Below are positions 37,340 through 62,162 of a stretch of 64,000 bases of DNA, one piece after another; the first letter of the stretch is position 1, and each line of letters begins with the position of its first letter. Source of the DNA: Bacteroidales bacterium. GTDB lineage: Bacteria; Bacteroidota; Bacteroidia; Bacteroidales; VadinHA17. A program made the position numbers and the translations under genes. The notes below the pieces were generated by a model. It saw nothing but the letters and a program-made list of their open reading frames with translations, was not told where the DNA came from and made no database searches. Location of the stretch: NCBI GenBank assembly GCA_017882305.1, contig JADGPU010000001.1, positions 7,789-71,788 of the forward strand. Direction: 5' to 3'.

Positions 37340-37372
37340 TAAAAAGTACGGAGCAAGGTGTGAGGAGTAAAA
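37338..37372. repeat. 7-nt-period array (5 units)
   Basis: agtaaaa agtacgg agcaagg tgtgagg agtaaaa. Confidence 0.6.
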
Positions 37373-37400
37373 AAATATTCATCATTTAAACCCTTATAAA

Positions 37401-40560: not shown

Positions 40561-40561
40561 T

Positions 40562-42604: not shown

Positions 42605-42622
42605 TCAGGCTAAAATTAGAGT

Positions 42623-42637
42623 TTGATGCATTATCAA
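42623..42637. promoter_or_regulatory. Palindrome TTGAT-N5-ATCAA upstream of tkt
   Basis: ttgatgcattatcaa, 19-33 nt upstream of the ATG at 42604. The same 5+5 palindrome recurs at 58936-58950. Confidence 0.35.
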
Positions 42638-42717
42638 CAAAAATATGATTATTCGACGAGAGAAAAAACAATTTTTTTTTTGTACTTTTAACCTGAATAG
42701 TCTAAACTGCCTGAAAC

Positions 42718-43458
42718 ATGGAACATAAGCTGAATGCTTTAATCGTTGATGATGAAGAGAATGCCAGATTATTACTTAATACGTTATTAGAGGAAACTTT
42801 TTTATTCAACGATATCAGATTAGCTCAGTCAGTCGACGCTGCTTACACTGAGATGAACCGTTTTGAACCGGATATTATCTTTCTCGATATTAAAATGCCC
42901 GGGAAAGACGGTTTTGCATTCATTCAGGATCTGCCTCATGGATACAAATTACAGAAAATTGTTTTTGTGACAGCCTATGATCAGTATGCTATTAAAGCAA
43001 TTAAAAACCAGGCCTTTGATTATCTTCTTAAACCGGTTAACCGCAAGGAATTAGAACAATGTTTATCAAGGTTTATTGAGAAGAAAAACGAAGAAACTGA
43101 TATTGAACGTACTGTAAAAATTATTGAAGCACATGATCGTATAACCAGGATAAGGGTCAATACCCGGACCGGAACATTATTTATTAATCCTTCTGATATA
43201 TTATTCTGTAAAGCTGAAGGTAATTATACAACAGTATGTACAGGTAAGAAACATCATCTCTGTTCAATGAACCTTGGAAGGGTGGCGGAATTGCTTCCCA
43301 AGAATGGGTTTGTAAGAGTGGGGCGGTCATACATTGTTAATTTTGAGTATATTACGATGTTAGATCGCAAGGAATGCACAATCATACTTGTGAGAGACGG
43401 GGAGTCAGTGACAGTTAAAATACCCAGACAGCATCTGAAGGATCTTGATATTATATAA
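42718..43458 (+). CDS. LytR/AlgR-family response regulator (REC + LytTR)
   Basis: REC domain (IFLDIKMPGKDG) and a C-terminal LytTR domain (ILFCKAEGNYT, RVGRSYIVN). Confidence 0.9.
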   Translation: MEHKLNALIVDDEENARLLLNTLLEETFLFNDIRLAQSVDAAYTEMNRFEPDIIFLDIKMPGKDGFAFIQDLPHGYKLQKIVFVTAYDQYAIKAIKNQAFDYLLKPVNRKELEQCLSRFIEKKNEETDIERTVKIIEAHDRITRIRVNTRTGTLFINPSDILFCKAEGNYTTVCTGKKHHLCSMNLGRVAELLPKNGFVRVGRSYIVNFEYITMLDRKECTIILVRDGESVTVKIPRQHLKDLDII

Positions 43459-43461
43459 ACA

Positions 43462-45556: not shown

Positions 45557-45973
45557 TTATAAATATTTCCTGTCTTCCTCGGGTATGTCAAAATATTTAT
45601 TATAGGTTTTAACATCAGGACCACTCTTTTCTTCTATTTTATTTCCCCTGATCTTATAAGTACACTTTTCTCCTGCAATACCTGAAAAATAAATGTTGTA
45701 CTCTTTTCCATCGTCATCAATCATTATAATCCTTACCAGATGATTGTACTTGGCACTGTTTAATTGTGAGTGACAGATAGGACACGTATAAATATATTCT
45801 TCACCTTCTTTTATATGGAAAGAAGGATGTGTTGTGGTTGTGTAGTTCCCGATCTCAGGATTCAAAAAAATCAATCCTCTTGCAGGACTGTTGGTTTTTG
45901 AGGCAGCAAGTACAATTGAAGTTTTAACTTTGAGATGTCCCCTGCATACTTTACAAAGATATTCTACAGCCAT
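45557..45973 (-). CDS. Hypothetical CxxC...CxxC protein, last gene of the hydrogenase operon
   Basis: 138-aa ORF with CKVCRGH and CPICHSQ about 60 residues apart. Its start overlaps the protease gene by 23 nt. Confidence 0.6.
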   Translation of the reverse strand: MAVEYLCKVCRGHLKVKTSIVLAASKTNSPARGLIFLNPEIGNYTTTTHPSFHIKEGEEYIYTCPICHSQLNSAKYNHLVRIIMIDDDGKEYNIYFSGIAGEKCTYKIRGNKIEEKSGPDVKTYNKYFDIPEEDRKYL

Positions 45974-46430
45974 GATGCACCTCCTGCTTGTTTATTAGTT
46001 TAATAATCTTATCTGCAACATTCTTTACAAGGTACGACAAATTTTCACCAAAGTCAATTTTTTCAGGTTGGATTCCGAGTACATAAACAGGCATCGTGAA
46101 GAATTCCGATAACCGTCTCAATGAAATATTATGAGTATTAAAAGTCAGATCCTGTATCTGCCTTAGTGATAGTAGTTTAAATGTTCCCGTAATGGCCTTC
46201 AAATCCACACAGTCAATAAGTATCAGTATATCGGGATTCAGACTAACTATTTTCCCGATATAATTTTCAATGCTTGCCTCTACGGTGAGCGATAATATTG
46301 AATCGTTTGTCCTTATTCTTTTGCTTATATATACACCGACACCATCATCCATTTTGAGAAGATTTCCGATTCCTACAAAAAGCTTTTTTTTATCTTTTTG
46401 GAACAGGATTTTATTTAGGTCATCATGCAT
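45951..46430 (-). CDS. hycI: Hydrogenase maturation endopeptidase (HycI/HyaD family)
   Basis: VGIGNLLKMDDGVGVY (GxGNxxxxDDGxG), LIDCVD, and FNTHNISL. Confidence 0.85.
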   Translation of the reverse strand: MHDDLNKILFQKDKKKLFVGIGNLLKMDDGVGVYISKRIRTNDSILSLTVEASIENYIGKIVSLNPDILILIDCVDLKAITGTFKLLSLRQIQDLTFNTHNISLRRLSEFFTMPVYVLGIQPEKIDFGENLSYLVKNVADKIIKLINKQEVHHGCRISL

Positions 46431-47043
46431 CCCTGAATAAGTATTTTATCTGGATTTGTCTCAGACAGTTAGGGCATATAATATTGAACATATCTTTTCT
46501 TTTCAGGTTATCTGTAATTTCAGAAGCAATGGACTGCCCTTCGGCCAGCTTTAGTTTCTCATTTAGCAGATTCAGATTCAGGATGGAAGAAAATGCTTTC
46601 GGACCAAGTTTCCTATGCATAAAATGAAGATGCTCCTTAGTTGTTATTACTGCATGGCAACTTTTACAAATGAGGAGTTCTTTTTCCTGGAATTCAACAT
46701 TTTTTTGTCTGTCAAACACAGCCAGGTCAAAAATTTTATCCGATAGTTTCACTCCTTTGCCGGTAATACAATGATCCTGACACTGCCCACAAAAGATACA
46801 CTTCCCGTAATCTCTTTTTATTGTCCTGATTCCCTTTTCTTTATCATCGACAAATGTTATAGCCTCTGGTGGACAAACATTTGCGCAGGTTTCACAACCA
46901 ACACAGTTCTCATCATCGACAACAGGCTTACCTCTGAAGTTTTCGAAAGGGACATGAGGTTCCTTCGGGAACTTCGATGTGTACGCAGGTGTGAAAAGAG
47001 AAACGAGTGCCTCTTTAACTTCTCTTACTTTAGGATACTTCAT
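46423..47043 (-). CDS. NuoI/MbhN-like 2x[4Fe-4S] subunit with a Cys-containing C-terminal extension
   Basis: CVGCETCANVCPP and CIFCGQCQDHC, with additional CKSCH ... CPNCL pairs in the last ~90 aa. Confidence 0.8.
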   Translation of the reverse strand: MKYPKVREVKEALVSLFTPAYTSKFPKEPHVPFENFRGKPVVDDENCVGCETCANVCPPEAITFVDDKEKGIRTIKRDYGKCIFCGQCQDHCITGKGVKLSDKIFDLAVFDRQKNVEFQEKELLICKSCHAVITTKEHLHFMHRKLGPKAFSSILNLNLLNEKLKLAEGQSIASEITDNLKRKDMFNIICPNCLRQIQIKYLFRDA

Positions 47044-47366
47044 TTTACAGCATCTTTATAATCATCTTTAACACTTTTATCTCCAAGTTTGATCCCGAAA
47101 TGGTAGGTCCCTCTGATAAGTGCATGAGCTGCAACAGTAGATCCAAAGAAAAGTATCGGTATCGCTATCAGAGCTTTTGTACTTGCGTCGCTAAGTCCGA
47201 AATGGAAGACCACTCCAAGCAGTATGCTGCAGCATCCCAGTGTTACGGCTTTTGTTGCTGCCTGGAGTCTATTGTAAGTATCAGGAAGTCTTATTATTCC
47301 AATACAACCCAGGAGGTTGAAGATAATTCCGATTGTTATAAAAATCAGGCTGATCATATTACTCAT
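47040..47366 (-). CDS. mrpG: Mrp/Mnh antiporter subunit G (MbhC-like)
   Basis: LLGCIGIIRLPDTYNRLQAATKAVTLG matches the MnhG signature. Confidence 0.85.
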   Translation of the reverse strand: MSNMISLIFITIGIIFNLLGCIGIIRLPDTYNRLQAATKAVTLGCCSILLGVVFHFGLSDASTKALIAIPILFFGSTVAAHALIRGTYHFGIKLGDKSVKDDYKDAVK

Positions 47367-47625
47367 TTAGTTTTTTACCCGTAAGATATTTGGCAAGCGT
47401 CAATGTGCCGATAAAACTCAGAATAATCCAGGCAATTCCGATGTCGAGAATAAATGACCTTTCTGTTTGAATGGAGATAATAGCACAAACCCCGACTACC
47501 AGTATTCCGAAAATATCTGCTCCTACCATCCTGTCGGGGATTGTAGGTCCTCTGATAATTCTGTACATGCAAATCCCGCTAAGACCTATCTGAACCCAAA
47601 GCAGTATATTAAGCCAGGTACTCAT
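47359..47625 (-). CDS. mrpF: Mrp/Mnh antiporter subunit F (MbhB-like)
   Basis: 88 aa with YRIIRGPTIPDRMVGADIFG. Confidence 0.85.
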   Translation of the reverse strand: MSTWLNILLWVQIGLSGICMYRIIRGPTIPDRMVGADIFGILVVGVCAIISIQTERSFILDIGIAWIILSFIGTLTLAKYLTGKKLNE

Positions 47626-48107
47626 TCTATTATTCTTTTAATATATTTTTCAAATGCTCCGGTTATAATTCCTGTGTAAACTTCAGGATCATCTGAGCTT
47701 ATATAGATCCAATGAATATACAGGTAGTCATCTATAATGTCGACAGAAATAGTCCCCGGTGTCATCGTAATCGAATTTGCAAGCAGCATTTTTGCCATAT
47801 CAGACTTTAATGTGGTTTTCACTTTCACAATACCTGGCCTGATCGGCATTGACGGATGAAGTACCCTGTAAGCGACATCTATATTTGCTTTTATACACTC
47901 CCAGATAAAAACTACCAGATAGACAAGAAACCAGAAATATCGGTGAGGTTGAATAAGTTTATATACATTTTTTACAAAAAACCTGGTGAATAATGCAGCA
48001 GTAATGAGAGAAGCTACCACTCCGACAATAAGATTGGGAATGGTAAATTCGAATGTTAACATTATCCAAAAGATCATTGATAATATAAAGACTGTAATGT
48101 ATCTCAT
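47622..48107 (-). CDS. mrpE: Mrp/Mnh antiporter subunit E (MbhA-like)
   Basis: ANIDVAYRVLHP and NSITMTPGTISVD. Confidence 0.85.
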   Translation of the reverse strand: MRYITVFILSMIFWIMLTFEFTIPNLIVGVVASLITAALFTRFFVKNVYKLIQPHRYFWFLVYLVVFIWECIKANIDVAYRVLHPSMPIRPGIVKVKTTLKSDMAKMLLANSITMTPGTISVDIIDDYLYIHWIYISSDDPEVYTGIITGAFEKYIKRIIE

Positions 48108-48108
48108 T

Positions 48109-49647
48109 TCATTGAACTAATATTGATGTTGAATATTTTACAGGATCAGTCAGAATATTGATTGCTGGAGTGAGAATTGCATCTCTGATTTCAGGTATAA
48201 CAAGAAGGCTTAGAAGAACACAGATAATGCTCAATACAACCATGCTGAACACCATCGGAAACGGTACTTCTCTGATATTATGATTCTTAGAATTATTTGA
48301 TCTGTTGAAAAAAGCATATCTCTGGAATTTAAGAAATGAAGCCAGAGTAATTATGCTGACTATTACTGCCAGTGCGGCAAGCAGATAAAACTTAGCCATG
48401 ACAGCGGCAATTATGATTATCAGCTTGCTGAAAAAGCCATTGAAAGGGGGAACTCCTGAAATAGACATTGATGCAATAAATGATGTTGCAGATGTTACCG
48501 GCATTGACTTCGCCAGTCCCCCCATCTCCTTAAGGTTACGGGTTCCAATGGTATATTCAATAGCACCTGCATTAAGAAATAAAAGTCCTTTAAATGCCGC
48601 ATGGTTAACAAGGTGGAAAAGGCCACCGGCAATTGCAAGCGAGGCAATCTCCGGTTTAGTTCCTCTGGAGACAAGGATCATCCCAATTCCAACCGACATT
48701 ACCACATAACCCATCTGGCTGATACTGTGATATGCAAGAAGTCTTTTAATGTCCCATTGCCCGATCGCCAGGAATACTCCAATTACCATAGACACAGTTC
48801 CAAGGGCTGTGATCAGTACTGCCATACCTTCGCTGATGGCGAACATGTTAAAAAATAATCTGATAATTACATAGATTCCGACAGCTTTAATAAATACACC
48901 TGACAGCATAGCTGAAATAGGTGAAGGAGCTGATGAGTGAGCGTCAGGCAGCCATGCATGAAAAGGAATTATGGCAGCTTTCAGACCAAAGCCGCTTAAT
49001 ATCAGAATCTGAATGAAGAGATAAGTTGTTTTATTATAACCGCTGCTGAAGGATGCTTTTATATCGGCAATATTCAGCGTTTTGGTTTTCCAGTAAATGA
49101 ATCCGATCCCGAAAAGAATTAAAAATGAGGCAAGCCCGCCAAGTATCTGATATTTAAATGAGGCCTCAAGTTCATTACTTTCAACTCCGAATGCTACCAA
49201 AGCATAGGATGAAATAACGGAAATTTCAAGGAATACGAAAATATTGAAAAGATCACCACTGAGAACTACTCCGTTCATCCCCCCGATCAAAAGACAGAAT
49301 AATGCGTAGAAATAGTTTCCGGCAGTATATCTTTTAATATAAGAAATTGAATAAAAAGCCGATAAGAAACCAATCAGGTTTATTATGCAAACTACAATTA
49401 CAGAAAATCCATCCATAACCATATAGATACCGATTGGAAGACTGTTTATTGGTTCCCAGCCACCAACTTTATATACAAATATTTTTTCTCCGGTTGTGAA
49501 AAGGAAATAGAAACTGATACAGGTCAGTAAGAGAAGGACAAGCGAGGTGAAGTATTTGTTAAACTCTTCTATAAACCTTCCGATAATCATTATCAGGAAA
49601 GCTCCAGCCAGAGGAATAATAACAAATAGTGGTATCAATGGATTCAT
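48109..49647 (-). CDS. mrpD: MrpD/NuoM-N-like antiporter-type subunit (second of two)
   Basis: 512 aa, polytopic. WLPDAHSSAPSPISAMLSG and LAYHSISQMGY. Confidence 0.9.
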   Translation of the reverse strand: MNPLIPLFVIIPLAGAFLIMIIGRFIEEFNKYFTSLVLLLLTCISFYFLFTTGEKIFVYKVGGWEPINSLPIGIYMVMDGFSVIVVCIINLIGFLSAFYSISYIKRYTAGNYFYALFCLLIGGMNGVVLSGDLFNIFVFLEISVISSYALVAFGVESNELEASFKYQILGGLASFLILFGIGFIYWKTKTLNIADIKASFSSGYNKTTYLFIQILILSGFGLKAAIIPFHAWLPDAHSSAPSPISAMLSGVFIKAVGIYVIIRLFFNMFAISEGMAVLITALGTVSMVIGVFLAIGQWDIKRLLAYHSISQMGYVVMSVGIGMILVSRGTKPEIASLAIAGGLFHLVNHAAFKGLLFLNAGAIEYTIGTRNLKEMGGLAKSMPVTSATSFIASMSISGVPPFNGFFSKLIIIIAAVMAKFYLLAALAVIVSIITLASFLKFQRYAFFNRSNNSKNHNIREVPFPMVFSMVVLSIICVLLSLLVIPEIRDAILTPAINILTDPVKYSTSILVQ

Positions 49648-49650
49648 ATT

Positions 49651-49989
49651 TTATCCTCTTAAGTTTTTTATCTCTCTTATATCGAAAGTCCCATACTTTC
49701 TGTAAAGCCTTATAATGACGGCCATGAGCATCGCAGTCGTTGCCAGTCCGATAACAATGGCTGTAAGCACCAGTGCCTGTGGTAAAGGATCAACATATAC
49801 TTTCACAGGATCAGTCGGATCTACGATTGGTGCAACTCCGCCATCAATATAACCTATAAGTGTGAAGAACAAAAAGGTACTTATTTCCATTATCGAAAGT
49901 GAAACAGCAATCTTAATCAGGTTTCTCCTGGTTATTACGCCGTATAATCCGACCAGAAACAATATGAAACACATTATATAAGCAATCAT
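49651..49989 (-). CDS. mrpC: MrpC/NuoK-like subunit (MbhG-like)
   Basis: 112 aa with 3 TM helices and LTAIVIGLATTAMLMAV. Confidence 0.85.
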   Translation of the reverse strand: MIAYIMCFILFLVGLYGVITRRNLIKIAVSLSIMEISTFLFFTLIGYIDGGVAPIVDPTDPVKVYVDPLPQALVLTAIVIGLATTAMLMAVIIRLYRKYGTFDIREIKNLRG

Positions 49990-50423
49990 TCTTTAGACTC
50001 CTCCTTAAAGATTATCAATGAAAGAAATATTATAAATATTGATGCAGCGACCTCAGTTCCAACAAAAATATTGTAAAGAGGTAATACACCTGCACTTACA
50101 AGATGTCCGACAATTCCTTTCGGAAGAAAATTGTTAAAGAAGATTTTAGTCCCGAATATAAAACCGGAAACGGCAACGAGTATAACCAGGATCGTAGCTA
50201 AACTTTCGATTATGGTAGTTCCTGATTCTTCTTTTATGAGTTTCATAAAATCGCCACCATTAGAAAGCGTAATCAGTATGAGAGAGCCTGCAATAACGAC
50301 TCCGCCTGCAAATCCTCCTCCCGGAGTAAGATGACCATGTACTATAACATAAATCCCGTACATAAAAATCATACCTGCAATAAGCTGGGTGGTTTTTTTT
50401 ACTATTAGTGTCATCCCTTTCAT
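49986..50423 (-). CDS. mrpB: MrpB-like subunit (MbhF-like)
   Basis: GHLTPGGGFAGGVVIA. ATG at 50423 is chosen; the track's TTG at 50438 lies inside the heptamer array. Confidence 0.8.
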   Translation of the reverse strand: MKGMTLIVKKTTQLIAGMIFMYGIYVIVHGHLTPGGGFAGGVVIAGSLILITLSNGGDFMKLIKEESGTTIIESLATILVILVAVSGFIFGTKIFFNNFLPKGIVGHLVSAGVLPLYNIFVGTEVAASIFIIFLSLIIFKEESKE

Positions 50424-50429
50424 AAAGCA

Positions 50430-50504
50430 AAAAGTCAAAATTCAAAAGTCAAAACTCAAAACTCAATATTCAATCTGCACCCTGCATCCTGCACCCTGCA
50501 ACTC
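50430..50504. repeat. 7-nt-period array (11 units) filling an intra-operon gap
   Basis: aaaagtc aaaattc aaaagtc aaaactc aaaactc aatattc aatctgc accctgc atcctgc accctgc aactcct. Confidence 0.85.
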
Positions 50505-51032
50505 CTATTTCTTCCCTCTTAATCTTAAAATAGTCAGCACTCCCAATACTGCTGTTACAAGTACGACCGCTTCCCCCATCGTATCGTAACCCCTGAAATC
50601 AAAAACAACACCTGTTACAAGATTAGCACTACCGGTTTTTTGTGCAGCACCTTCTATATAATGTTTTGCCATTCTTAACGAACTTTTCCCAAGAACATCA
50701 AGCGACTGAATTGAAACAGTATAAAAATAAAGGAGTAGCAAGCCCAGGAAAATTGCGGTTACTGCAGAAATATATCCCTGGGTATCAAGTTTTAAATATG
50801 ATTCCTCGCGGGAGCTGTCGAGGACAACAGCAACCATAATTATCAGAGTTATTGTATCAACTACGATCTGAACAATTGCGAGGTCGGGTGCTTTCAGAAG
50901 TAAAAAACATATTACCAGACTATATCCTACAAGACCACAAGCTATTACTGAAGAAAGCAAATCCCTGGCATGGATAGCATACAATGCCCCGAAAATCATG
51001 AATCCTACTATTATAGATATGGTCAGGTCCAT
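50505..51032 (-). CDS. MrpA C-terminal-domain / MbhD-E-like subunit (DUF4040 + MnhB-related segment)
   Basis: 175 aa. [17 protein letters not shown], with a C-terminal [22 protein letters not shown]. Confidence 0.75.
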
Positions 51033-51047
51033 TTCAGCTTTAATTAT

Positions 51048-52907
51048 TTATATCATAATAAGTAGCATAACTATTAATCCTGCAAAAACCCAGATGACAT
51101 AACCAGGTAATACTCCAGCATGAGCTTCACTCAACTGGTGACTAAGCCAGAGTACAAACTTTTTTGACAGGTCATAAATGTCAAACCATCGTTCTTCAGC
51201 TTTTTTATAGATCCATGAAAACAACCGGAATTCACCAATTGTTTTATAGAATTCCGTAGTGGAATAACTTGTCTGATCCTGAATTTTTTCTCCTCCGATA
51301 AAGCTATCTTCAGTTCTGAATTTCTTAAGATTGAATGCCAGATAGAGAATTATTCCAAGAATTATTGAGGTTAGAACAAGCAACGATACAAATGATGAAT
51401 TCCAGAATCCCTTGAATTGAAATGCACCTGAAACAGGCATGAATAGTTTTGGTACAATGAAATTTGTGGCAAATACACCAAAAAAGATACAGAATAAAGC
51501 AAGGATAACCAGTGGTACCAACATCATAACTGGTACTTCCCTGACCTTTTCAAACTCTGGCCTCCGTCGGCCCAGGAAGATTCCACCTATTAATTTAATA
51601 AAGCTTGCAAGAGTAAGCGCTGATCCAAGCACTGCCAATCCAAGCCATAATACCCAAAGTTTATTAGCCAAACCTGATCCGGTTCCAAAATCAATTATTC
51701 CCTGGTATATCATCCATTTTGAAGCAAAACCGTTTAATGGAGGTACTCCTGAAATAGACATGGCAAAAATCAGAGCTGCAAAGAATGTAACAGGCATTGC
51801 TTTTGACAGACCACCAAGGTTGTCGATATCTTCTTCCCCGGTACGAAATTCCACGCATCCGGCAGAGAGGAAAAGCCCGCTTTTATATAAGGCATTATTT
51901 ATCATATGGAACAGACCTGCTGCCACACCTATCATCGAACCAAGTCCGAATCCGAGAATCATATAACCCACCTGCGAAACTGCATGAAATCCGAGCAACC
52001 GTTTGTAATTATGCTGAACCAGAGCCATCATTACAGCAGTGATAATTGAAATCGTTCCAAGAGATAACAGAAGAATCCTCATCCATTCATTCAGGACGAA
52101 TATACAAGTGGTTAACCTGGCAAGAAAGTAAATACCCAGAAGCTTATCAAGGGAAGCAGGAAGATAAGCAGATGAAGAGGCCGGTGCACTCTTTGCATAA
52201 TCCGGAACCCATGTATGAAACGGGAAAGCGCCCGCTTTAGTGAAACTCCCAATAAGTAAAGCCAGAAAAGCAACAACTGACAATACATTTGTGGTTGGTA
52301 ACGATATACCTCCCATACTTAAAGAACCGGTAAGCTTCCACAGGATTGCGATCCCGATTATCATAATACTATCGGAAGCTCCAATAAGAATGAGAGTTTT
52401 CTTGGCAGTTGCGGAGCTTTCCTCATCAGTGCCTTGTATCAGCTTATATAAAGTTATTCCAAGAATACCCCAGAATAAAATGAATAAAAGCAGGTTATCA
52501 GATACAACGGCACCATATGCACAACCAAGAGTAATAAGAAAATACGGATAATAGTTTCTGACTCTTCCATCTTTAATATAAGCCAGTGAATATATTAGGA
52601 TTAAAAAGCTAAAAAGACTGATAAACATGATAATAAGTCTGCTAAGGTTATCGCAGTTGAATGCCATATACCTTCCGGCATCATGAAGAAAGTCAAAACC
52701 AAAAACAAACATTGTTGAACCGGATGAAAGCTCATTCAGATGATGAAGCTGACTACCTGAACTGTAAATTACAATTGTAAGATAACCTGTAACGATACTT
52801 ACCAGCAGAGCAATAATACCTTTGACGGTTCTGAATTTTTCCGGAACGAAAAAAAGTAAAAGGCCGATAAAAACAGGCAGGGCAATTATGCTGATGATCT
52901 CTGTCAT
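51048..52907 (-). CDS. MrpA-N/NuoL/MbhH-like antiporter-type subunit (first of two)
   Basis: 619 aa, polytopic. WVPDYAKSAPASSSAYL and LGFHAVSQVGYM. Confidence 0.9.
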   Translation of the reverse strand: MTEIISIIALPVFIGLLLFFVPEKFRTVKGIIALLVSIVTGYLTIVIYSSGSQLHHLNELSSGSTMFVFGFDFLHDAGRYMAFNCDNLSRLIIMFISLFSFLILIYSLAYIKDGRVRNYYPYFLITLGCAYGAVVSDNLLLFILFWGILGITLYKLIQGTDEESSATAKKTLILIGASDSIMIIGIAILWKLTGSLSMGGISLPTTNVLSVVAFLALLIGSFTKAGAFPFHTWVPDYAKSAPASSSAYLPASLDKLLGIYFLARLTTCIFVLNEWMRILLLSLGTISIITAVMMALVQHNYKRLLGFHAVSQVGYMILGFGLGSMIGVAAGLFHMINNALYKSGLFLSAGCVEFRTGEEDIDNLGGLSKAMPVTFFAALIFAMSISGVPPLNGFASKWMIYQGIIDFGTGSGLANKLWVLWLGLAVLGSALTLASFIKLIGGIFLGRRRPEFEKVREVPVMMLVPLVILALFCIFFGVFATNFIVPKLFMPVSGAFQFKGFWNSSFVSLLVLTSIILGIILYLAFNLKKFRTEDSFIGGEKIQDQTSYSTTEFYKTIGEFRLFSWIYKKAEERWFDIYDLSKKFVLWLSHQLSEAHAGVLPGYVIWVFAGLIVMLLIMI

Positions 52908-54109
52908 ATCTGACTATTAAAAGTGTTCTTTATTTCATTAGTCTTCTTTGCTGATTCATTAATCAATTCATTAGCGTTCATTATTCTTTCTCCTGAATTT
53001 ATATCATAAGCTACAGCCATCCTTTCGGTACAACAGTAACAAGGATCAACGGCTGCAAGGGAAATTGTGGCATCAGCAATTGTCTGCCCGATACACGATT
53101 TTTTAAATGTGGCAATATTGACATAGCTGGGAGCCCTTATCTTATGTCTGACCGGAGAACTGGAACCATCTGATTGCACAAAATGGAATACTTCACCTCG
53201 TGGAGCTTCAGCACGGCCATTCCCAATACCTTCAGGTATCTCTTTCACTTTAATTGTAATATCACCCTCTTTTTCTTTATTAAGACCATCGAGACATTGT
53301 TCAATTATTGAGATTGATTCATACATCTCAAGCAATCTGACCTCTGCTTTAGCAAAAACATCACCGGATTCTGCTGTTATCACTTTCCAGTTAACAAGCG
53401 GATAGGCTGCATACGGATCATCTTTACGTACATCAATAGCCACACCCGACGCACGCGCAGTTGGTCCAACTGCACCATAATCAATAATATCCTGCTTTGT
53501 AAGAATACCAACCCCTTTGGTTCTGGCATGAATTACCGGATCATCCATTATTGCTCCTGTCAGTAAATCGGTCTTTTTCTTAATATCATCCAGAACCTTA
53601 TGAATAGCAGGAATTTTAATCGCTTCAATATCTCTTCTGACGCCACCCACCCTGAACATTGCATAGCTGTTCCTGTTTCCTGATATCATCTCAAAAAGAT
53701 CGAGAACAGGTTCACGATATTTCCATGCCCACATGAAAACAGTATTATAACCCAGGAAATGTCCTGCAAGTCCAACCCAGAGGAGATGACTGTGAAGACG
53801 CTCCAGTTCACCGATTATTGATCTTATATATTTTGCCCTGTTTGTAATTTCGATATCTGCAATTTCTTCGACAGCATTAGCAAAAGCAAAAGGATGAGAA
53901 TTTGAACATATACCGCATATTCGTTCAACAAGGAAAAAAATCTGTTCGTAAGTTTTTGATTCACTTAGTTTCTCTATACCACGATGATTATATCCGGTCT
54001 CCCATTTTATGTCTTTTACAATCTCACCGTCACAGTAAAGCTTGAACAATTCTGGTTCTTCCTGAAGTGGATGATAAGGTCCGATCGGTATGAGTGTTTT
54101 TTTGCTCAT
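52904..54109 (-). CDS. Group-4 [NiFe]-hydrogenase large subunit (MbhL/NuoD-like)
   Basis: N-terminal RICGICSNSH and C-terminal DPCYCCTER supply all four Ni-Fe Cys ligands. A 38-aa tail follows the C-terminal motif. Confidence 0.92.
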   Translation of the reverse strand: MSKKTLIPIGPYHPLQEEPELFKLYCDGEIVKDIKWETGYNHRGIEKLSESKTYEQIFFLVERICGICSNSHPFAFANAVEEIADIEITNRAKYIRSIIGELERLHSHLLWVGLAGHFLGYNTVFMWAWKYREPVLDLFEMISGNRNSYAMFRVGGVRRDIEAIKIPAIHKVLDDIKKKTDLLTGAIMDDPVIHARTKGVGILTKQDIIDYGAVGPTARASGVAIDVRKDDPYAAYPLVNWKVITAESGDVFAKAEVRLLEMYESISIIEQCLDGLNKEKEGDITIKVKEIPEGIGNGRAEAPRGEVFHFVQSDGSSSPVRHKIRAPSYVNIATFKKSCIGQTIADATISLAAVDPCYCCTERMAVAYDINSGERIMNANELINESAKKTNEIKNTFNSQI

Positions 54110-54128
54110 AATGGATAATCTCCGTATA

Positions 54129-54566
54129 TTATTTAAACTCTTTCCTTAAAGGATAAACACCTTCAGCCCAGTTGCCTTCCGAGATAAGTTTTTCCTGGTT
54201 GGGGTGATTCAGAAAATTTATCCCAAGAAGCTCGTGCATCTCCCTTTCTATCCAGTTTGAAGCATTGAACATGTTCGAAAGTGAGGCAATCTGTGGATTA
54301 CTCCTGTCAAGCACCACATGTACGTTCAGTATAAGTCCTGAAATATCTTTACTGAAATGATAATGAATCTCAAACCCTCTTTTAGTATGTAATGCTGAAG
54401 CAATAATAAACCTGAACCCAGCTATCCTGTATAAATATTCGGCAACATTTACAATTGAATCCGGATTGACAGTAATAATCATCCGCTTCTGATTCTTTAC
54501 CCTTATCTCCAGAATGTCAGATTTGAATTCCTCTTTGAATTTTTCTATGGTCAACTCTGAATCCAT
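54129..54566 (-). CDS. NuoC/MbhK-like subunit
   Basis: 145 aa with NWIEREMHELLGINFLNHPN. Confidence 0.85.
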   Translation of the reverse strand: MDSELTIEKFKEEFKSDILEIRVKNQKRMIITVNPDSIVNVAEYLYRIAGFRFIIASALHTKRGFEIHYHFSKDISGLILNVHVVLDRSNPQIASLSNMFNASNWIEREMHELLGINFLNHPNQEKLISEGNWAEGVYPLRKEFK

Positions 54567-54574
54567 TTTATATT

Positions 54575-54988
54575 TTATGAGTTCTGTACAAGCTTAATAA
54601 TACCGGCAATAATAGCTTCGGGTTTAGGTGGACATCCCGGCACGTAAGCATTAACCGGAATTATTTTATCAACAGGACCTGCAAATGTGTAGCTTTCAGT
54701 AAAGTATCCTCCTGTACAACCGCAAGCACCAATTGCAACAACCAGTATAGGTTTTGGAGCCTGGTTGTAAACCTCTATCAGTCTCTCCTTATCACGCGTA
54801 TTTATTGAACCATTGACAAGCAATACATCCGCATGCCTGATACTTCCGACCAGCAAAATTCCAAAACGTTCAAGATCGTGTCTTGGTGTTAGGCAATCAA
54901 GTATCTCAATATCACAATTATTGCAGGAAGCTCCTCCAAAATGAAAGACCCAGAGAGATTTTTTAAAGCAATAATTTTTGAAACCCAC
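54575..54988 (-). CDS. Hydrogenase small subunit, NuoB/MbhJ-like
   Basis: GGASCNNCDIE, IGACGCTGG and PGCPP ligate the proximal 4Fe-4S cluster. The likely GTG start at 54988 comes just after the upstream stop; the track ORF extends to 55054. Confidence 0.85.
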   Translation of the reverse strand: MGFKNYCFKKSLWVFHFGGASCNNCDIEILDCLTPRHDLERFGILLVGSIRHADVLLVNGSINTRDKERLIEVYNQAPKPILVVAIGACGCTGGYFTESYTFAGPVDKIIPVNAYVPGCPPKPEAIIAGIIKLVQNS

Positions 54989-54999
54989 GTTAATAAATT

Positions 55000-55932
55000 T
55001 TAGTAGCCAAATGCAATCAATACCAATGCGATGATGGCAATCAGGTTCATCCACACAACGAAGAAGCTGATAGCCTGCTTAATCTTTACCCTTGGATTTG
55101 TGTTCCGTATCAGAGTCAGGATTAGTACTACGGCAAAAATCTTCAGTAATGCCCATAAAATATGAATTCCCTCAAACCTGAAGCCGTTCATTAACAGCGC
55201 AACCAGAAAAGCAGGGAGGATAAAAAACATGATATATTTTGTAAGCTTTATCATTGCGTAAGCTGCACCGGAATATTCAATGAAAATCCCTTCAGTAATT
55301 TCAGCCTCTGCTTCAGGCATATCAAATGGTACAAGTGCCAGTTTTGCCTGGATGCAAAAAATACCTACAACGAATAGTAGTACTCCTGAAATACTACCTA
55401 TGAACGGAGATCCTGCCTTTTGTGCCTGTATAATTGAATATAAATCAAAATGTTGCCCACATTTCATAATGATCCCGGCAATAAACAGGAGAAAGGTCAG
55501 CTCATAACTTAGGATTAGTTTCATCTCTCTTGATCCGCCGACCGCAGCCAGAGGATTGCCGGAAGCGAGTGCACCTATAATATATGAGAATGAAGGGATA
55601 GTAAGGAGGTAAAAAATTACTATCAGATCACCCCTGAATCCTGTCGTGATATTCAGCAGGGGAAGGAGTATGAATACCCCTGCCATAGTCGCGCCAAATA
55701 CTGCAAAGATGGGAGCAACGAGAAATATTAACGGTGATCCATGTTTAGGCAGTATTGTTTCCTTGACTAATAATAATTTGAAGAAATCGTAGAATGGCTG
55801 TAATATTGGAGGCCCATTGCGAAATTGTACCCTGGCAGTTATTTTCCTGTCGAACCACGAAAGGAATGCTCCCGTTACTGCTGCAAAGAGCAGTCCGGGG
55901 AAGACAAGAAAATAAAAGAGATTAACTGCCAT
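55000..55932 (-). CDS. NuoH/MbhM-like membrane subunit
   Basis: 310 aa with FDRKITARVQFRNGPP and 8 predicted TM helices. Confidence 0.88.
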   Translation of the reverse strand: MAVNLFYFLVFPGLLFAAVTGAFLSWFDRKITARVQFRNGPPILQPFYDFFKLLLVKETILPKHGSPLIFLVAPIFAVFGATMAGVFILLPLLNITTGFRGDLIVIFYLLTIPSFSYIIGALASGNPLAAVGGSREMKLILSYELTFLLFIAGIIMKCGQHFDLYSIIQAQKAGSPFIGSISGVLLFVVGIFCIQAKLALVPFDMPEAEAEITEGIFIEYSGAAYAMIKLTKYIMFFILPAFLVALLMNGFRFEGIHILWALLKIFAVVLILTLIRNTNPRVKIKQAISFFVVWMNLIAIIALVLIAFGY

Positions 55933-55943
55933 ATTACTGGTAT

Positions 55944-56441
55944 TTAATGTTTTTCAGTGATATATAAAAGATCTCTTACAAGTACTTTTTCATTAAGGCA
56001 ATAAATATTCTTATCCGGAGATTCATCTTCATCAGTAAGAGTTACTGTTCCCACAGGACAAGCCTTGATGAATTTTTCCATCTCCTTTTCATCTTTCAGA
56101 TCATAGAAGAGGTCTTTATTCCTGTGGTGTTTAAAGAAATCAGTCATCATTGTTCCGAAGGGACAAATTGTAACACACGATTTGCATGAAACACAAAGAT
56201 TTGTATATCGTACAACGATTCCATTTTCATCTTTTTCCAGGGCATCTGCAGGACAAACGCTGATACAGGGGGCATCTTCACATTTTCTACATGTAAATCT
56301 GAAAGTAGCAAGCTCACGGATTGTCTTTAACCCGTTTATATTAAGTGTCGGATAGAAATAAGCCTCAGGTACTGCAGTACTTGAGTCTTCAATCATGGCT
56401 GAACGCAGCTTGATCATATCTATCAGGATCTTACGGGTCAT
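55944..56441 (-). CDS. CooF/HycB-like 4Fe-4S electron-transfer protein
   Basis: CRKCEDAPCISVCP, CVSCKSCVTICP, and a third Cys group CPVG. Confidence 0.8.
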   Translation of the reverse strand: MTRKILIDMIKLRSAMIEDSSTAVPEAYFYPTLNINGLKTIRELATFRFTCRKCEDAPCISVCPADALEKDENGIVVRYTNLCVSCKSCVTICPFGTMMTDFFKHHRNKDLFYDLKDEKEMEKFIKACPVGTVTLTDEDESPDKNIYCLNEKVLVRDLLYITEKH

Positions 56442-56495
56442 TTTATATACTTTTAAAAAGAGCTGTATGCCATTGTTTTTACGTTAATTAATTTA

Positions 56496-56951
56496 TTATA
56501 AAGTCAACTGGTTCATCAACTGGAACCTTGTATCGCTCAGACGGTAAGAAATTGTCTGGGCGATTTTTGACATTGTTTTAAACCCGAATTCACAGTTTTT
56601 TTCAAACTCCAGAATGAGTTTTTTAGAGTCAATAGCCATGACTTTTGTAGGGCATGTGGCTTTTACCCAGGCTGTTGAGATGTAAGGGCTGAAAACTGCC
56701 GACCATGAGAAGAGCTGACCCTCCTCTAATGTGCCGAGATGGATTCTCTTTTCCTTAGCCAGGCTTATTCCCAGTGATAAACATCCGGTAAGCAATACAT
56801 AAATCTCGTTAAGCTCATCATACTGTTCAAACAAAATATCTTTTACTTTGAATTCTTTTATGGAGCTTATACCAATAAATATATTCAATTGTTTATCCGT
56901 ATAATTGTCAAAAAACCTGACATTTTTCAAATCATTAATTGTAAGTTCCAT
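56496..56951 (-). CDS. Cyclic-nucleotide-binding-like domain protein without a DNA-binding domain
   Basis: 151 aa with a Crp/FNR effector-domain beta-barrel pattern (FEQYDELNEIYVLLTG, GTLEEGQLFSWSAV). No HTH follows. Confidence 0.7.
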   Translation of the reverse strand: MELTINDLKNVRFFDNYTDKQLNIFIGISSIKEFKVKDILFEQYDELNEIYVLLTGCLSLGISLAKEKRIHLGTLEEGQLFSWSAVFSPYISTAWVKATCPTKVMAIDSKKLILEFEKNCEFGFKTMSKIAQTISYRLSDTRFQLMNQLTL

Positions 56952-57008
56952 AGTCTGTTAAATATTAATTTTAAAAAGAACGAGATAATATGTTGAATTC
57001 TGATATGC

Positions 57009-57836
57009 TTATTTCCATATTTCAGGATTATGTTTTATCTCATTATATGTAAAAACAGGGCCGTCTCTGCAAACGAAGAATTCACCCATCATACAATGCC
57101 CGCATTTACCTAAGCCGCACGACATGTTCTTTTCCATCGAAAGGTAAATCTGATCATCTTTATATCCCATTTCCAGTAGTCTGATAGTTCCGAATTTCAT
57201 CATGACCGGTGGGCCACAAACTACAGCAACAGAATTCTCTATATTAATTTTGATTTTATTAAGAAGAGTCGTTGCAACTCCTACTGAACCATCCCAGTCT
57301 TCATCTGCTTTATCTACAGTACGATATGCTTCAAACTTTTCTGTCCTGTTTAACCGGTCAAAAAGGGGTTTGTAGATACAATCGGAAGGAGACTTGGATC
57401 CATAACAAAGGATAACCTTGACCAGTTTATCTTTAATACTTTCGAGCGCATAAAGAAGCGATCGAATGGGAGCAAGACCGCAACCACCACCCAGGATTAG
57501 CACTTCTTTGCCAAAGAACGATTCGACAGGATAACCTCTTCCATAAGGACCTCTTATTCCCATATAAACTCCGGGTTTCAGCATATGCATATACTCTGTA
57601 ACGTATCCTGTTTTCATTACAGTAACTTCGAGTTTTTCTGTAATCAAAGGTGAAGAAGAGGGTGTAAAGGGAGCTTCCCCTATTCCATCAACAGATAATT
57701 CGATAAACTGACCAGTTTTAAAAGAGAACTTGTTTTCAGGTACCATTACAAATGTTTTAATAGATGGTGATTCCTCAATAACATCTGTAAGCCTTGCCTT
57801 TATAGGACTGTATATGTTCCTGTCATCCTTCATCAA
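57009..57836 (-). CDS. FAD/NAD(P)-binding + [2Fe-2S] oxidoreductase (AsrB / sulfhydrogenase-gamma / PyrK-like)
   Basis: FTPSS (RxxS-type FAD site), GGGCGLAPIRS (NAD(P) site), and a C-terminal CGLGKCGHCMMGEFFVCRDGP. Confidence 0.85.
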   Translation of the reverse strand: MMKDDRNIYSPIKARLTDVIEESPSIKTFVMVPENKFSFKTGQFIELSVDGIGEAPFTPSSSPLITEKLEVTVMKTGYVTEYMHMLKPGVYMGIRGPYGRGYPVESFFGKEVLILGGGCGLAPIRSLLYALESIKDKLVKVILCYGSKSPSDCIYKPLFDRLNRTEKFEAYRTVDKADEDWDGSVGVATTLLNKIKINIENSVAVVCGPPVMMKFGTIRLLEMGYKDDQIYLSMEKNMSCGLGKCGHCMMGEFFVCRDGPVFTYNEIKHNPEIWK

Positions 57837-58831
57837 TGGCTATTTTCAAGTTCCATAAATATTTCGTTTTTATTGATCTTTCCTATACAGGCTTCAATGC
57901 ATCTGCCACACCCCGTACAAGCGAGGGAACTGAATTTTCCGGGTTTCCATACATATTTGCACATGTATCTGTTTCTAAATCGATTGTGAAGTTCATACAA
58001 TGCATCTTCTCCTCCTGCAACCCTTTCAAATCCTGGATACTGGCATGCATCCATTTGTTTTACCTTCTCAAAACCTGGCTTGTCAATAAGAAGAAAACAC
58101 GTACATGTCGGGCAGATTGTGGTACAGGCTCCGCAGGAGACACACCTGGCAGAATATTTTTCCCATATATCACCTTTCGCGCTCGTCGTGAGATCACCCG
58201 TCTTTTTATAATCAGGCAATCCTTTATTTGATTTTGTAAGCAACGTTTCTGTTGCAAGATGTTCCTTTTCAATTACCGCAATTAAATTTTTATCTACCTG
58301 TGATGTAAATGCAGGGATCTTCCTGACAAACTCTTCCCCTTTTACGGACAATATTCTCAGCACAATTGTTCCATCAAGGTTTATAACTGCCAGGTCAGCA
58401 TGCTTTTCAGAATATGGCTTAACGTTATATGATAAACAGTGGCAATGTTCCTGAATTCCAAAACAATCAGATGCTATAAGAAGAGTGTTCTCGCGACGCT
58501 TCGAGTAAAATAAATCACTAAACTCCTTGTCGAGATAAATATCGTCAGGAAGACATAGTCCTTCAATATCGCAATTGGGGATACCAATAATGATCCTTGG
58601 CTTTTCCTCAGCCTTCATGGATGATACATTTTCTTTAACAGGAAGAAAGAAGCTTTTAAGTGGGGTAGACGGTTTAGGTTTATTATAGGTAATTTTTGCA
58701 ATATCTTCAGACCTGATCAATTCATAATCAATGCCAAATTCATTCTCAACACTTGCAAAAATGGTATAGGATAACAACAAATGCTCTAATGTCTTATCCC
58801 ACTCTTCCTTTTTTATGCAATTATACTGCAT
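57833..58831 (-). CDS. 4Fe-4S protein (AsrA / sulfhydrogenase-beta-like), first gene of the operon
   Basis: CVSCGACTTICPTCTCF and CTGCGRCIEAC. Confidence 0.8.
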   Translation of the reverse strand: MQYNCIKKEEWDKTLEHLLLSYTIFASVENEFGIDYELIRSEDIAKITYNKPKPSTPLKSFFLPVKENVSSMKAEEKPRIIIGIPNCDIEGLCLPDDIYLDKEFSDLFYSKRRENTLLIASDCFGIQEHCHCLSYNVKPYSEKHADLAVINLDGTIVLRILSVKGEEFVRKIPAFTSQVDKNLIAVIEKEHLATETLLTKSNKGLPDYKKTGDLTTSAKGDIWEKYSARCVSCGACTTICPTCTCFLLIDKPGFEKVKQMDACQYPGFERVAGGEDALYELHNRFRNRYMCKYVWKPGKFSSLACTGCGRCIEACIGKINKNEIFMELENSH

Positions 58832-58838
58832 TTAATTT

Positions 58839-58856
58839 ATGTGAGAAGTTTCACAG
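58839..58856. promoter_or_regulatory. Candidate Rex operator; the minus strand reads CTGTGAA-ACTT-CTCACAT
   Basis: Contains TGTGA-N6-TCACA, with 11/14 half-site match to TTGTGAA-N4-TTCACAA. It lies 8-25 nt upstream of the ATG at 58831. Confidence 0.6.
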
Positions 58857-59021: not shown

Positions 59022-59039
59022 ATGTGAAACAAATCACAA
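59022..59039. promoter_or_regulatory. Candidate Rex operator, ATGTGAA-ACAA-ATCACAA, overlapping the rex start codon
   Basis: 12/14 half-site match to TTGTGAA-N4-TTCACAA. The GTG start of rex is at 59024. Confidence 0.5.
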
Positions 59040-59707
59040 AAAACATCATTAAAAACAGTCTGAAAAGGATTTTTCTTTACAGGGCATGCCTTGTGAGGCT
59101 AAAATTAATGGGAGTTGAAAAAGTCTTTTCTTATACTCTTGCAAATGAAACAGGTGTCACCTCTGACCAGGTAAGAAAAGATTTTTCTGAATTCTGTATA
59201 AAGGGAAATAAGCGTGGCGGATATAATATTAATGATCTGCTTGAAAAGATGGAAAAGTTATTCCACCGCAACAAAGATAATAATATTGTGCTAATCGGCA
59301 TGGGGAATATGGGTCTTGCACTTTCGAAGTACAGTAAATTTGTACAGCGTCATATGAATATTGTTGCAACCTTCGACATTGATCCTTTCAAACAGAAAAT
59401 GAGATCCGGTATACCGGTATATTCAATGAGCCGTTTGAAAGAAATCATTGACAGGTTCAGTGTTAAAGTGGCTATCGTTGCCGTACCTGAGATTTCTGCC
59501 CAGGAAGTTACCGATGAACTTATTCGGCATGGCATATCCGGAATAGTGAATTTTGCACCTGTACTATTAAAAGTGTCGCCGGATGTGATCATAAATAACG
59601 TAAACCTTTGCGATGAACTTGAAAGCGTTATTTATTATGTTCATAAACAAATTAAAGTTAATGGACTTAAAAACCTGGAGCTATTATACAGGGATATGAA
59701 ATATTGA
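59024..59707 (+). CDS. rex: Redox-sensing transcriptional repressor Rex
   Basis: N-terminal winged helix (LKRIFLYRACL...VTSDQVRKDFSEF...KRGGYNI) followed by a Rossmann fold (VLIGMGNMGLAL). Confidence 0.9.
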   Translation: MKQITKNIIKNSLKRIFLYRACLVRLKLMGVEKVFSYTLANETGVTSDQVRKDFSEFCIKGNKRGGYNINDLLEKMEKLFHRNKDNNIVLIGMGNMGLALSKYSKFVQRHMNIVATFDIDPFKQKMRSGIPVYSMSRLKEIIDRFSVKVAIVAVPEISAQEVTDELIRHGISGIVNFAPVLLKVSPDVIINNVNLCDELESVIYYVHKQIKVNGLKNLELLYRDMKY

Positions 59708-61938: not shown

Positions 61939-62162
61939 TGTGTCTGAGTATTCCAGCAAAGATTGTATCCATCGACGGTAATATGGCAGAGGTATCAGCC
62001 GGAGGTGCAATATTTAGTGCAGGTCTGCATATGATCGAAAATGCCAGGGTCGGAGACTATGTCCTTTTACATGCCGGGTTTGCAATCCAGAAGATAAGTG
62101 ATAAGGAGGCTGAAGAAACTATAAGATTACTTGAAGAGATGAATAATTCTCTGAATGAATAA
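61938..62162 (+). CDS. hypC: Hydrogenase assembly chaperone HypC
   Basis: 74 aa beginning MCLSIPAKIV. Confidence 0.92.
   Translation: MCLSIPAKIVSIDGNMAEVSAGGAIFSAGLHMIENARVGDYVLLHAGFAIQKISDKEAEETIRLLEEMNNSLNE

Follow-up and report, generated by a model that had tools for sequence, protein, structure and literature searches.

A Hun-type [NiFe]-hydrogenase operon of Bacteroidales with a conserved rex association and a possible NAD(P)H partner

We analysed a stretch of 64,000 nucleotides (nt) from a Bacteroidales bacterium (GenBank assembly GCA_017882305.1, contig JADGPU010000001.1, positions 7,789 to 71,788 of the forward strand), hereafter called the window, whose minus strand carries an operon for a group-4 [NiFe]-hydrogenase with an embedded set of Mrp antiporter genes and a pair of AsrA/AsrB-like genes in front. 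This operon almost certainly belongs to the Hun type, since its gene order matches the published description of Hun and its large subunit bears the CGIC/CYCC signature. What is new here is the association of the operon, across phyla, with rex, the gene of a redox-sensing repressor, and with Rex boxes, together with the conserved nucleotide site of the subunit HunB. We put at about even the chance that the Hun-type operon encodes an enzyme exchanging electrons with NAD(P)H under the control of Rex.

Gene content of the operon and class of its large subunit

The operon comprises 19 open reading frames (ORFs), all reading in one direction from 58831 to 45557 on the minus strand. Their coordinates were verified, and every ORF of the co-directional operon announced in the original prediction was found in its place. 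Adjacent genes overlap by 4-23 nt or are separated by gaps of at most 66 nt, with the exception that the gap at the MrpB junction widens to 81 nt if ATG 50423 is used as the start codon instead of TTG 50438. Protein identities were assigned with Pfam and NCBIfam profiles, which bore out all the gene identities proposed earlier, and closest solved relatives were taken from the PDB. The hun letters used here were given by gene order, following the published Hun naming.

The promoter-proximal genes encode soluble redox proteins. HunA (57833..58831) is a 332-amino-acid (aa) Fe-S subunit resembling AsrA and the sulfhydrogenase beta subunit, with Fer4_22 (5e-22) and ShyB-HydB-AsrA-like matches (NCBIfam ShyB, 3.6e-41) and the beta subunit of the NADPH-dependent soluble hydrogenase I (SHI) of Pyrococcus as its solved relative (9nez_B, 1.8e-32). 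HunB (57009..57836, 275 aa) is AsrB/sulfhydrogenase-gamma-like and combines FAD, NAD(P) and [2Fe-2S] domains (FAD_binding_6, NAD_binding_1 and DHODB_Fe-S_bind; 9nez_C, 1.7e-48). Next comes the gene of a stand-alone 151-aa protein with a cNMP-type sensory domain (56496..56951), for which Pfam cNMP_binding is the only match, and then hunC (55944..56441), the product of which is a 165-aa HycB/CooF-like (CooF/HydN-like) connector with two [4Fe-4S] clusters (Fer4_11) related to HycB4/HycB3 of HDCR (7qv7) and to HycB of FHL (7z0s_B).

The hydrogenase core follows, with the 310-aa NuoH/MbhM-like membrane anchor HunD (55000..55932; Pfam NADHdh, 1.4e-62), the NuoB-like small subunit HunE (54575..54988; Pfam Oxidored_q6, 4.8e-29), the 145-aa NuoC-like HunF (54129..54566; Pfam Complex1_30kDa) and the 401-aa group-4 [NiFe] large subunit HunG (52904..54109; Complex1_49kDa and NiFeSe_Hases). 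A mechanical ORF call would start hunE at 55054, a GTG within the NuoH-like gene. The GTG at 54988 is most likely the true start, as it lies 12 nt after the NuoH-like stop and yields a 137-aa product as in Kosmotoga; the supposed overlap of 55 nt with the NuoH-like gene thus probably does not exist.

The membrane arm is encoded by hunH to hunO. HunH (51048..52907, 619 aa) is an antiporter-like protein of the MrpA-N or MbsH' kind (Pfam Proton_antipo_M) and HunI (50505..51032, 175 aa) is MbhD+MbhE-like in Pfam and NCBIfam, equivalent to the C-terminal part of MrpA. The MrpB/MnhB-like HunJ (49986..50438; MnhB in both profile collections), the MrpC/NuoK-like (MnhC) HunK (49651..49989; Oxidored_q2) and the 512-aa MrpD-like antiporter subunit HunL (48109..49647; Pfam Proton_antipo_M, 2.9e-65) come next, followed by the MrpE-like HunM (47622..48107; Pfam MNHE), the MrpF-like HunN (47359..47625; Pfam MrpF) and the MrpG-like HunO (47040..47366; Pfam PhaG_MnhG). 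At the distal end lie hunP (46423..47043), encoding a 206-aa HycF/NuoI-like protein with two [4Fe-4S] clusters and an extra CxxC...CxxC tail (HycF, 7z0s_F, 3.4e-20), a gene for a HycI-type maturation endopeptidase (45951..46430; NCBIfam TIGR00142, 3.3e-21) and, as the last gene, one whose 138-aa product has two CxxC pairs but matches no family (45557..45973).

Scans for transcription signals are consistent with a single transcript of the operon while giving no evidence for it. Terminator-like sites within the operon are rarer than expected by chance and none falls in an intergenic gap; sigma-70 promoter-like sites occur at chance level, in a scan whose tool does not cover Bacteroidetes promoters.

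HunG carries both cysteine pairs (RICGICSNSH and DPCYCCTER), and these motifs are near-invariant among its relatives, DPCYCCTER being found in 82 of 85 sequences, which upholds the earlier view of HunG as a true hydrogenase subunit. Beyond DPCYCCTER it extends by a 38-aa C-terminal tail (33-40 aa overall) that is HycE-like and unlike MbhL, and this cleavable tail accounts for the presence of hycI. Its closest solved match is MbhL of Pyrococcus furiosus (292 bits, 41% identity), followed by HycE of Escherichia coli (36%). We also looked at 20 group-4 cluster representatives, those named being from Kosmotoga, Bathyarchaeota, Methanoregula, Oscillospiraceae, Infirmifilum and Anaerolineales. Beyond the Bacteroidales group, the closest representatives of sequence clusters share 59-60% identity with HunG, and the next ones, beyond the Hun family, at most 49%. 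In a neighbour-joining (NJ) tree, rough and with MbhL and HycE as its only two characterised anchors, the AsrAB-linked large subunits stand apart from both. Those of Bacteroidales, Kosmotoga and a lineage with an additional molybdopterin-like subunit (described below) form one clade (bootstrap 86%), Bacteroidales and Kosmotoga group together (77%), and deeper nodes are weak.

Membership in established classes was considered and rejected in each case. Group 4d MBH was discarded because MbhL lies in a different NJ clade at 41% identity, and also because the operon encodes two Proton_antipo_M subunits and HunABC, compared with one antiporter and direct ferredoxin input in MBH. The full Mrp set and the CooF/HycB-like connector are features that the operon shares with the formate- or CO-linked group 4b; none of the 19 proteins, however, contains a molybdopterin or CODH domain. 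The four [NiFe] cysteines of HunG rule out MBS/Mbx and Ehr. As for group 3b sulfhydrogenases, homologues of their beta and gamma subunits are present, but the catalytic subunits are of the group-4 NuoD/NuoB type, and an AsrABC sulfite reductase was dismissed because the operon has no siroheme AsrC gene.

Comparison with known complexes showed from where each part of the predicted complex has its nearest counterparts. P. furiosus MBH (6cfw) shares the NuoH-, NuoB-, NuoC- and NuoI-like and the MrpB-G-like subunits with the window, whereas it has a single antiporter-like subunit, a tail-less large subunit, direct ferredoxin input and no HunABC. Two antiporter-like subunits and a full Mrp complement occur in P. 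furiosus MBS/Mbx (6u8y), whose MbsH'-type subunit of about 618 aa aligns with HunH through residues 94-612. HunH scores best against MbhH (2.2e-52), and among solved matches with E <= 1e-30 only MbsH' (6u8y_X) covers its C-terminal part. MBS is a polysulfide-reducing complex without the [NiFe] cysteines, whereas HunG keeps both pairs. The complete Mrp set with two antiporter-like subunits (Proton_antipo_M in HunH and HunL) is present, as had been predicted; as a novelty it is anticipated by the solved MBS complex.

Group 4b hydrogenases carry a full Mrp set. In E. coli FHL (group 4a, 7z0s) and in the Fdh-Mfh-Mnh and Codh-Mch-Mnh complexes of Thermococcus onnurineus (group 4b), electrons run from a soluble dehydrogenase through a HycB/CooF-like and a HycF-like protein to the small and the large subunit, and the window encodes the same series, with HycF (3.4e-20) ranking ahead of MbhN among the solved relatives of HunP. 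HycI of FHL-type enzymes cuts the C-terminal tail after DPCxxCxxR, as expected in the window. The input differs, being a formate or CO dehydrogenase in FHL and group 4b and an SHI beta/gamma-type flavoprotein pair in the window. The beta and gamma subunits of P. furiosus SHI (group 3b, 9nez) are the closest solved homologues of HunA and HunB, and SHI gamma has its FAD, NAD(P) and [2Fe-2S] motifs in common with HunB, but the SHI pair serves a cytosolic group-3 hydrogenase dimer while HunAB are encoded with a membrane-bound group-4 enzyme. As read from its genes, the complex is an MBS-type membrane arm with a true [NiFe] site, an FHL-type wire and an SHI beta/gamma-type flavoprotein pair.

The Hun family and its association with rex

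The original prediction had presented this architecture as a new chimera. The same architecture, including its occurrence in Bacteroidetes and Kosmotoga, had already been published by Glass et al. (10.1101/536078), who named the 16-subunit "Hun supercomplex". In the parts of that source that describe the complex, Hun is reported from metagenome-assembled genomes (MAGs) of Atribacteria, Firmicutes, Omnitrophica, Elusimicrobia and Bacteroidetes and from Kosmotoga isolates; HunAB are AsrAB-like, a molybdopterin protein is optional between HunB and HunC, and HunG, with the signature CGIC/CYCC, is assigned to HydDB group 4g, yet is distant from other 4g sequences. The same text on Hun predicts ferredoxin as the electron donor to HunABC; it makes no mention of Rex and proposes no NAD(P)H coupling. 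HydDB describes group 4g as uncharacterised, and ferredoxin is the default reading of the group in MAG papers. Related clusters were published as the "enigmatic hydrogenases" of Saganbacteria, accompanied by asrA-, asrB- and cooF-like genes (PMC6349859), and as the "Mbh-Mrp-oxidoreductase type" of Elusimicrobia, the function of its oxidoreductase being given as not known (10.1101/765248). No biochemical follow-up of the Hun complex was found in the papers searched, and Atribacter laminatus was rejected as a model organism because this cultured atribacterium has no NiFe hydrogenases. A characterised subgroup with a known donor would, as stated earlier, have refuted the prediction; the Hun subgroup does not amount to one, having been described, not characterised.

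The window operon agrees with the published Hun in gene order and in the CGIC/CYCC signature. Relative to that description, it adds the cNMP-domain gene between hunB and hunC, hycI, the CxxC gene and a divergent rex-hypFCDE cluster.

To delimit the family, relatives were scanned in one genome per species with the window large subunit as the query. HunG has relatives in at least 524 species-level genomes, the best 80 of which are all from Bacteroidota MAGs, mostly Bacteroidales/Rikenellaceae, at 82-94% identity. In all 63 Bacteroidales loci with sufficient upstream DNA, hunA and hunB come directly upstream, with strand and order unchanged. The complete genome of Kosmotoga olearia TBF 19.5.1 shows an identical order from the AsrA-like gene to hycI (Kole_0560-0574), followed by hypFCD. 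Furthermore, wherever enough upstream DNA was available, hunA was found upstream on the same strand in 13/13 loci of the molybdopterin lineage and 27/27 of the Sedimentisphaerales lineage, followed by hunB where this could be scored. Conservation of AsrAB-like genes directly upstream, which had been put forward as a check of the prediction, hence holds in Bacteroidales, Kosmotoga, Sedimentisphaerales and a fourth lineage. This synteny across phyla rules out AsrAB as an unrelated neighbouring operon, and by gene order HunAB are functionally linked to the hydrogenase rather than accidental neighbours.

Variants of the locus were observed in other lineages. The molybdopterin lineage (loci L088-L115 and L083) has a 535-aa molybdopterin-like protein between HunB and the CooF-like HunC, and its large subunit is a NuoC-NuoD fusion. 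Three further loci are informative. A deeper relative, L084 (5808-12011), has AsrA/AsrB/CooF-like genes and the core of the hydrogenase but lacks Mrp genes beside them. Another, L086 (5377-11098), has rex directly upstream of AsrA/AsrB and the core up to the large subunit, which stands at the contig end and bears an unusual C-terminus, DAYCGCVER, without a tail. In L087 (3-11696), a Cys-less (Ehr/Mbx-like) NuoD occupies the same order CooF-H-B-C-D-Mrp-I, with a molybdopterin-like gene in front in place of AsrAB, and here the scaffold appears to be reused with other chemistries. Comparison of L084, L086 and L087 suggests, from gene order, that the Mrp block is an insertion between the NuoD-like and NuoI-like genes.

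In the window, rex (59024..59707, plus strand; Pfam Put_DNA-bind_N and CoA_binding) diverges from the hun operon and is followed on the same strand by the [NiFe] maturation genes hypF (59704-61938), hypC (61938-62162), hypD (62168-63253) and hypE, which runs from about 63250 off the window end at 64000. The rex-hunA intergenic region is 192 nt long, with two TGTGA-N6-TCACA palindromes. The first Rex box (58839..58856) has the core TGTGAAACTTCTCACA on the operon strand, with TGTGA-N6-TCACA at 58841-58856, 9-24 nt before the hunA start codon. The second (59022..59039), at the 5' end of rex, reads TTGTGATTTGTTTCACAT on the minus strand and differs from TTGTGAANNNNTTCACAA by two mismatches. The Rex operator predicted in front of the operon is thus joined by a second box and an adjacent rex gene, and the arrangement is conserved in relatives.

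Of 60 Bacteroidales loci, 55 have TGTGA-N6-TCACA upstream of hunA, as a rule once near -20 and once near -203, and conservation of a box near -210 was seen in 47 loci; rex is the divergent neighbour in 58 of the 60. In the Sedimentisphaerales lineage (metagenome loci L116-L167), rex is instead the first gene of the hun operon, co-directional and directly upstream of hun in 25/27 loci, as it is in L086. The exact TGTGA-N6-TCACA pattern was not found in the upstream regions of this lineage, where inspection revealed a conserved variant, TTGTGAATGTGAACACAA. Because the exact pattern misses this variant, final counts were made with the broader TTGTG-N8-CACAA, allowing at most one mismatch (background 0.02 per 340 nt); it lies upstream of the operon in 56/60 loci of Bacteroidales, 2/2 of Kosmotoga and 22/26 of Sedimentisphaerales. 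The Kosmotoga box is TTGTGAATTTTATCACAA, 15 nt ahead of the start codon. In L116-L167, about 60 nt before rex, an almost invariant TTTGTGAATGTGAACACAAG stands right after a TTGAC-17-TATAAT-like promoter; it is a Rex-box variant with the right half AACACAA, ahead of the rex-hun operon. Neither rex nor a Rex box was found in the molybdopterin lineage (0/14 loci), in contrast to the three lineages that lack the molybdopterin protein.

A rex gene, Rex boxes or both therefore accompany the hun operon in three phyla. Members of a Rex regulon are recognised by a promoter-region operator of the Rex type (TTGTGAA-N4-TTCACAA-like) together with a rex gene in the genome, and the presence of both suggests that the operon is under Rex control.

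Two accessory genes, specific to Bacteroidales, are an addition to the published Hun. The cNMP-domain gene between hunB and hunC, found in about half of the Bacteroidales hun operons, encodes no DNA-binding domain. Its product lacks the cyclic-nucleotide-binding Glu/Arg pair of CRP (GQLF... and STA versus GELF and RSA), has the orphan 3mdp as its closest solved relative, and fills the slot held by the molybdopterin-like subunit in another lineage. The gene of the 138-aa CxxC protein, for which Pfam, NCBIfam and the PDB gave no match, is present in each Bacteroidales locus that reaches that far downstream, is restricted to Bacteroidales and is absent from Kosmotoga (L081). With its two CxxC pairs, the protein could be a metal-handling or maturation accessory.

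The redox partner of the Hun complex

What was observed at these loci, namely their gene content, motifs, synteny and the conservation of rex and of its boxes, bears on the identity of the electron carrier, and we consider the case for NAD(P)H as the physiological redox partner of the Hun complex to be close to evenly balanced. The link is favoured because HunB keeps its FAD, NAD(P) and [2Fe-2S] motifs, because rex or Rex boxes go with the operon in three phyla, and because HunA and HunB find their nearest solved relatives in SHI beta and gamma. At least 115 of 117 HunB orthologues retain the FAD motif GExPF[ST], the nucleotide loop GGGxGxAP, CGPxxM and all four cysteines for the [2Fe-2S] cluster (63/63 in Bacteroidales, 2/2 in Kosmotoga, 15/15 in the molybdopterin lineage and 35-37/37 in Sedimentisphaerales). 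Beta2 is followed by a basic residue, which is also the case in the NADPH enzyme HydG. The NAD motifs are degenerate only in L084, which has no adjacent Mrp genes, and in L086, whose contig ends early. To our knowledge, all characterised PyrK/FNR-like proteins with intact motifs use a pyridine nucleotide. The HycB/CooF-type connector docks a soluble dehydrogenase in the formate- and CO-linked relatives (FHL and Coo).

Pyruvate is a source of reduced ferredoxin, not of NADH. During growth of K. olearia on pyruvate, Kole_0560-0574 are weakly expressed, at 30-200 reads per kilobase per million (RPKM) compared with about 2000 for the [FeFe]-hydrogenase (PMC5674127, supplement), which fits an enzyme other than the main ferredoxin oxidiser. 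K. olearia is also without a bifurcating hydrogenase (10.1101/322537).

Several points weigh against an NAD(P)H partner. The sole published functional prediction for Hun members is that of ferredoxin as the donor. All characterised Mrp-linked group-4 hydrogenases that we know of take low-potential donors (ferredoxin, formate or CO), and we know of no group-4 enzyme that forms H2 from NADH, a reaction that is endergonic at standard conditions. Rex also controls ferredoxin-dependent hydrogenases in some Firmicutes, so that Rex control shows a link to the redox state, not the identity of the donor. Furthermore, the molybdopterin lineage retains HunAB with neither rex nor Rex box in any of 14 loci, and there the pair might pass electrons out to NAD(P)+ or be a mere wire. 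Finally, the degenerate NAD site of HunB in L084 and L086 means that HunAB can persist without nucleotide binding.

According to the published Hun model, which we hold to be unlikely, ferredoxin feeds HunABC and the complex is an H2-evolving, energy-conserving, Mbh-like H+/Na+ pump in which the FAD/NAD fold of HunB merely serves as a wire. Besides being the prediction of Glass et al. and the default for group 4g in MAG papers, this scheme is thermodynamically favourable, and in this respect better than one based on NAD(P)H, and the large MBS-type membrane arm suits an energy-releasing reaction; the relatives without adjacent Mrp genes, which keep HunAB despite a degenerate NAD site, fit it as well. 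However, the characterised ferredoxin-dependent enzymes Mbh and Ech need neither a flavoprotein nor a HycB-like connector, and the retention of the HunB FAD and nucleotide motifs in all but two at most of the 117 orthologues, over several phyla, is unexpected for a wire. The location of rex within or beside the operon in three phyla also speaks against ferredoxin as the donor, as does the low expression in K. olearia on pyruvate, where ferredoxin is the sole reductant.

A dual-donor or three-way arrangement, with HunC or HunP as the entry point of ferredoxin and HunB as the point of entry or exit for NAD(P)(H), seems quite improbable to us, and we are equally doubtful of its variants, an ion-coupled ferredoxin:NAD(P)+ oxidoreductase with H2 overflow or ferredoxin-driven pumping that pays, via the membrane, for NADH-driven H2 formation. 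The wire is modular and has several surface-exposed ferredoxin-type subunits, the Cys-less L087 keeps the gene order with another oxidoreductase in the place of HunAB, which shows inputs and outputs to be exchangeable, and the molybdopterin lineage has a third catalytic subunit between HunB and HunC. Nonetheless, the idea is speculative, and a bifurcating-type flavin site (NfnB- or HydB-like) is not present. Reduction of S0 or polysulfide by HunAB with electrons from H2, after the old "sulfhydrogenase" activity of group 3b, would agree with HunAB being homologues of the two subunits, beta and gamma, of that enzyme and of the sulfite reductase components AsrAB, yet we regard it as very improbable indeed: the operon encodes no AsrC-like or siroheme subunit, the established role of SHI in vivo is in NADPH-linked H2 metabolism and not in sulfur reduction, and both Rex control and the hyp genes indicate a place in H2/NADH metabolism.

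If NAD(P)H is the partner, we infer a donor, direction, ion specificity and contacts between subunits as follows. The complex would reversibly join the NAD(P)H pool to H+/H2, coupled to H+/Na+ movement, with HunA and HunB as a soluble input/output pair in which HunB would bind FAD, the pyridine nucleotide and a [2Fe-2S] cluster, and HunA would carry [4Fe-4S] clusters. NAD(P)H would reduce the FAD of HunB, and electrons would pass to the [2Fe-2S] cluster of HunB and the [4Fe-4S] clusters of HunA, then through the two clusters of HunC and the two of HunP to the HunE cluster, and from there to the [NiFe] site of HunG, where protons would be reduced. HycI would cleave the C-terminal tail of HunG during maturation, and the NuoH-like anchor and the split Mrp arm, with its two antiporter-like subunits, would couple the reaction to ions. 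A rising NADH/NAD+ ratio would release Rex from both operators, allowing expression of the hun operon and of rex-hypFCDE, and surplus reductant would then exit the cell as H2.

The energetics would depend on conditions. With NADH and 1 bar of H2, the reaction would be uphill by about 18 kJ/mol, while at 1-10 Pa of H2, as in syntrophic sediments and peat, it would be near equilibrium; a reduced NADPH pool can make it downhill, and at higher H2 pressure ion influx would be needed as the drive. The arm could thus power the reaction or, alternatively, save energy that it releases, and the enzyme probably works in both directions. More tentatively, at somewhat less than even confidence, we propose that Hun is the first group-4 Mrp-linked [NiFe]-hydrogenase with an NAD(P)H partner, switched by Rex, in which an ion gradient, used or generated, makes H2 formation from NADH feasible in fermenters without bifurcating [FeFe]-hydrogenases.

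Neighbouring genes and wider meaning

Elsewhere in the window, a fused EtfB-EtfA protein (687 aa) adjoins an ETF:quinone oxidoreductase-like protein (2552-6174, minus strand), a hint that the organism also has a quinone-linked branch of electron transfer. The plus-strand gene at 18007-19911 encodes a protein of 634 aa that combines two CCG (HdrD-type) domains with a 4Fe-4S dicluster domain. A dense run of sensor genes, also on the plus strand (33496-45546), includes PAS/GAF histidine kinases, a PocR-domain kinase, a hybrid kinase and a LytTR regulator with a LytS-type kinase; its last gene is convergent with the hydrogenase operon, the two 3' ends lying 10 nt apart.

Group-4 hydrogenases, whose characterised members all draw electrons from ferredoxin, formate or CO as far as we know, are regarded as kin of the ancestor of respiratory complex I. 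If the NAD(P)H link is true, Hun would fill a functional gap between the group-4 hydrogenases and the NADH-oxidising complex I, being in effect a complex I that reduces protons, not quinone. Fermenters would then gain a chemiosmotic alternative to flavin-based electron confurcation for producing H2 from NADH, and the formation of H2 in anoxic sediments, peat and digesters would be linked in part to NADH by way of the membrane potential. The hun operon occurs in hundreds of Bacteroidales species and in several other phyla, and its routine annotation as a ferredoxin-dependent Mbh may mislead metabolic models of anoxic ecosystems.

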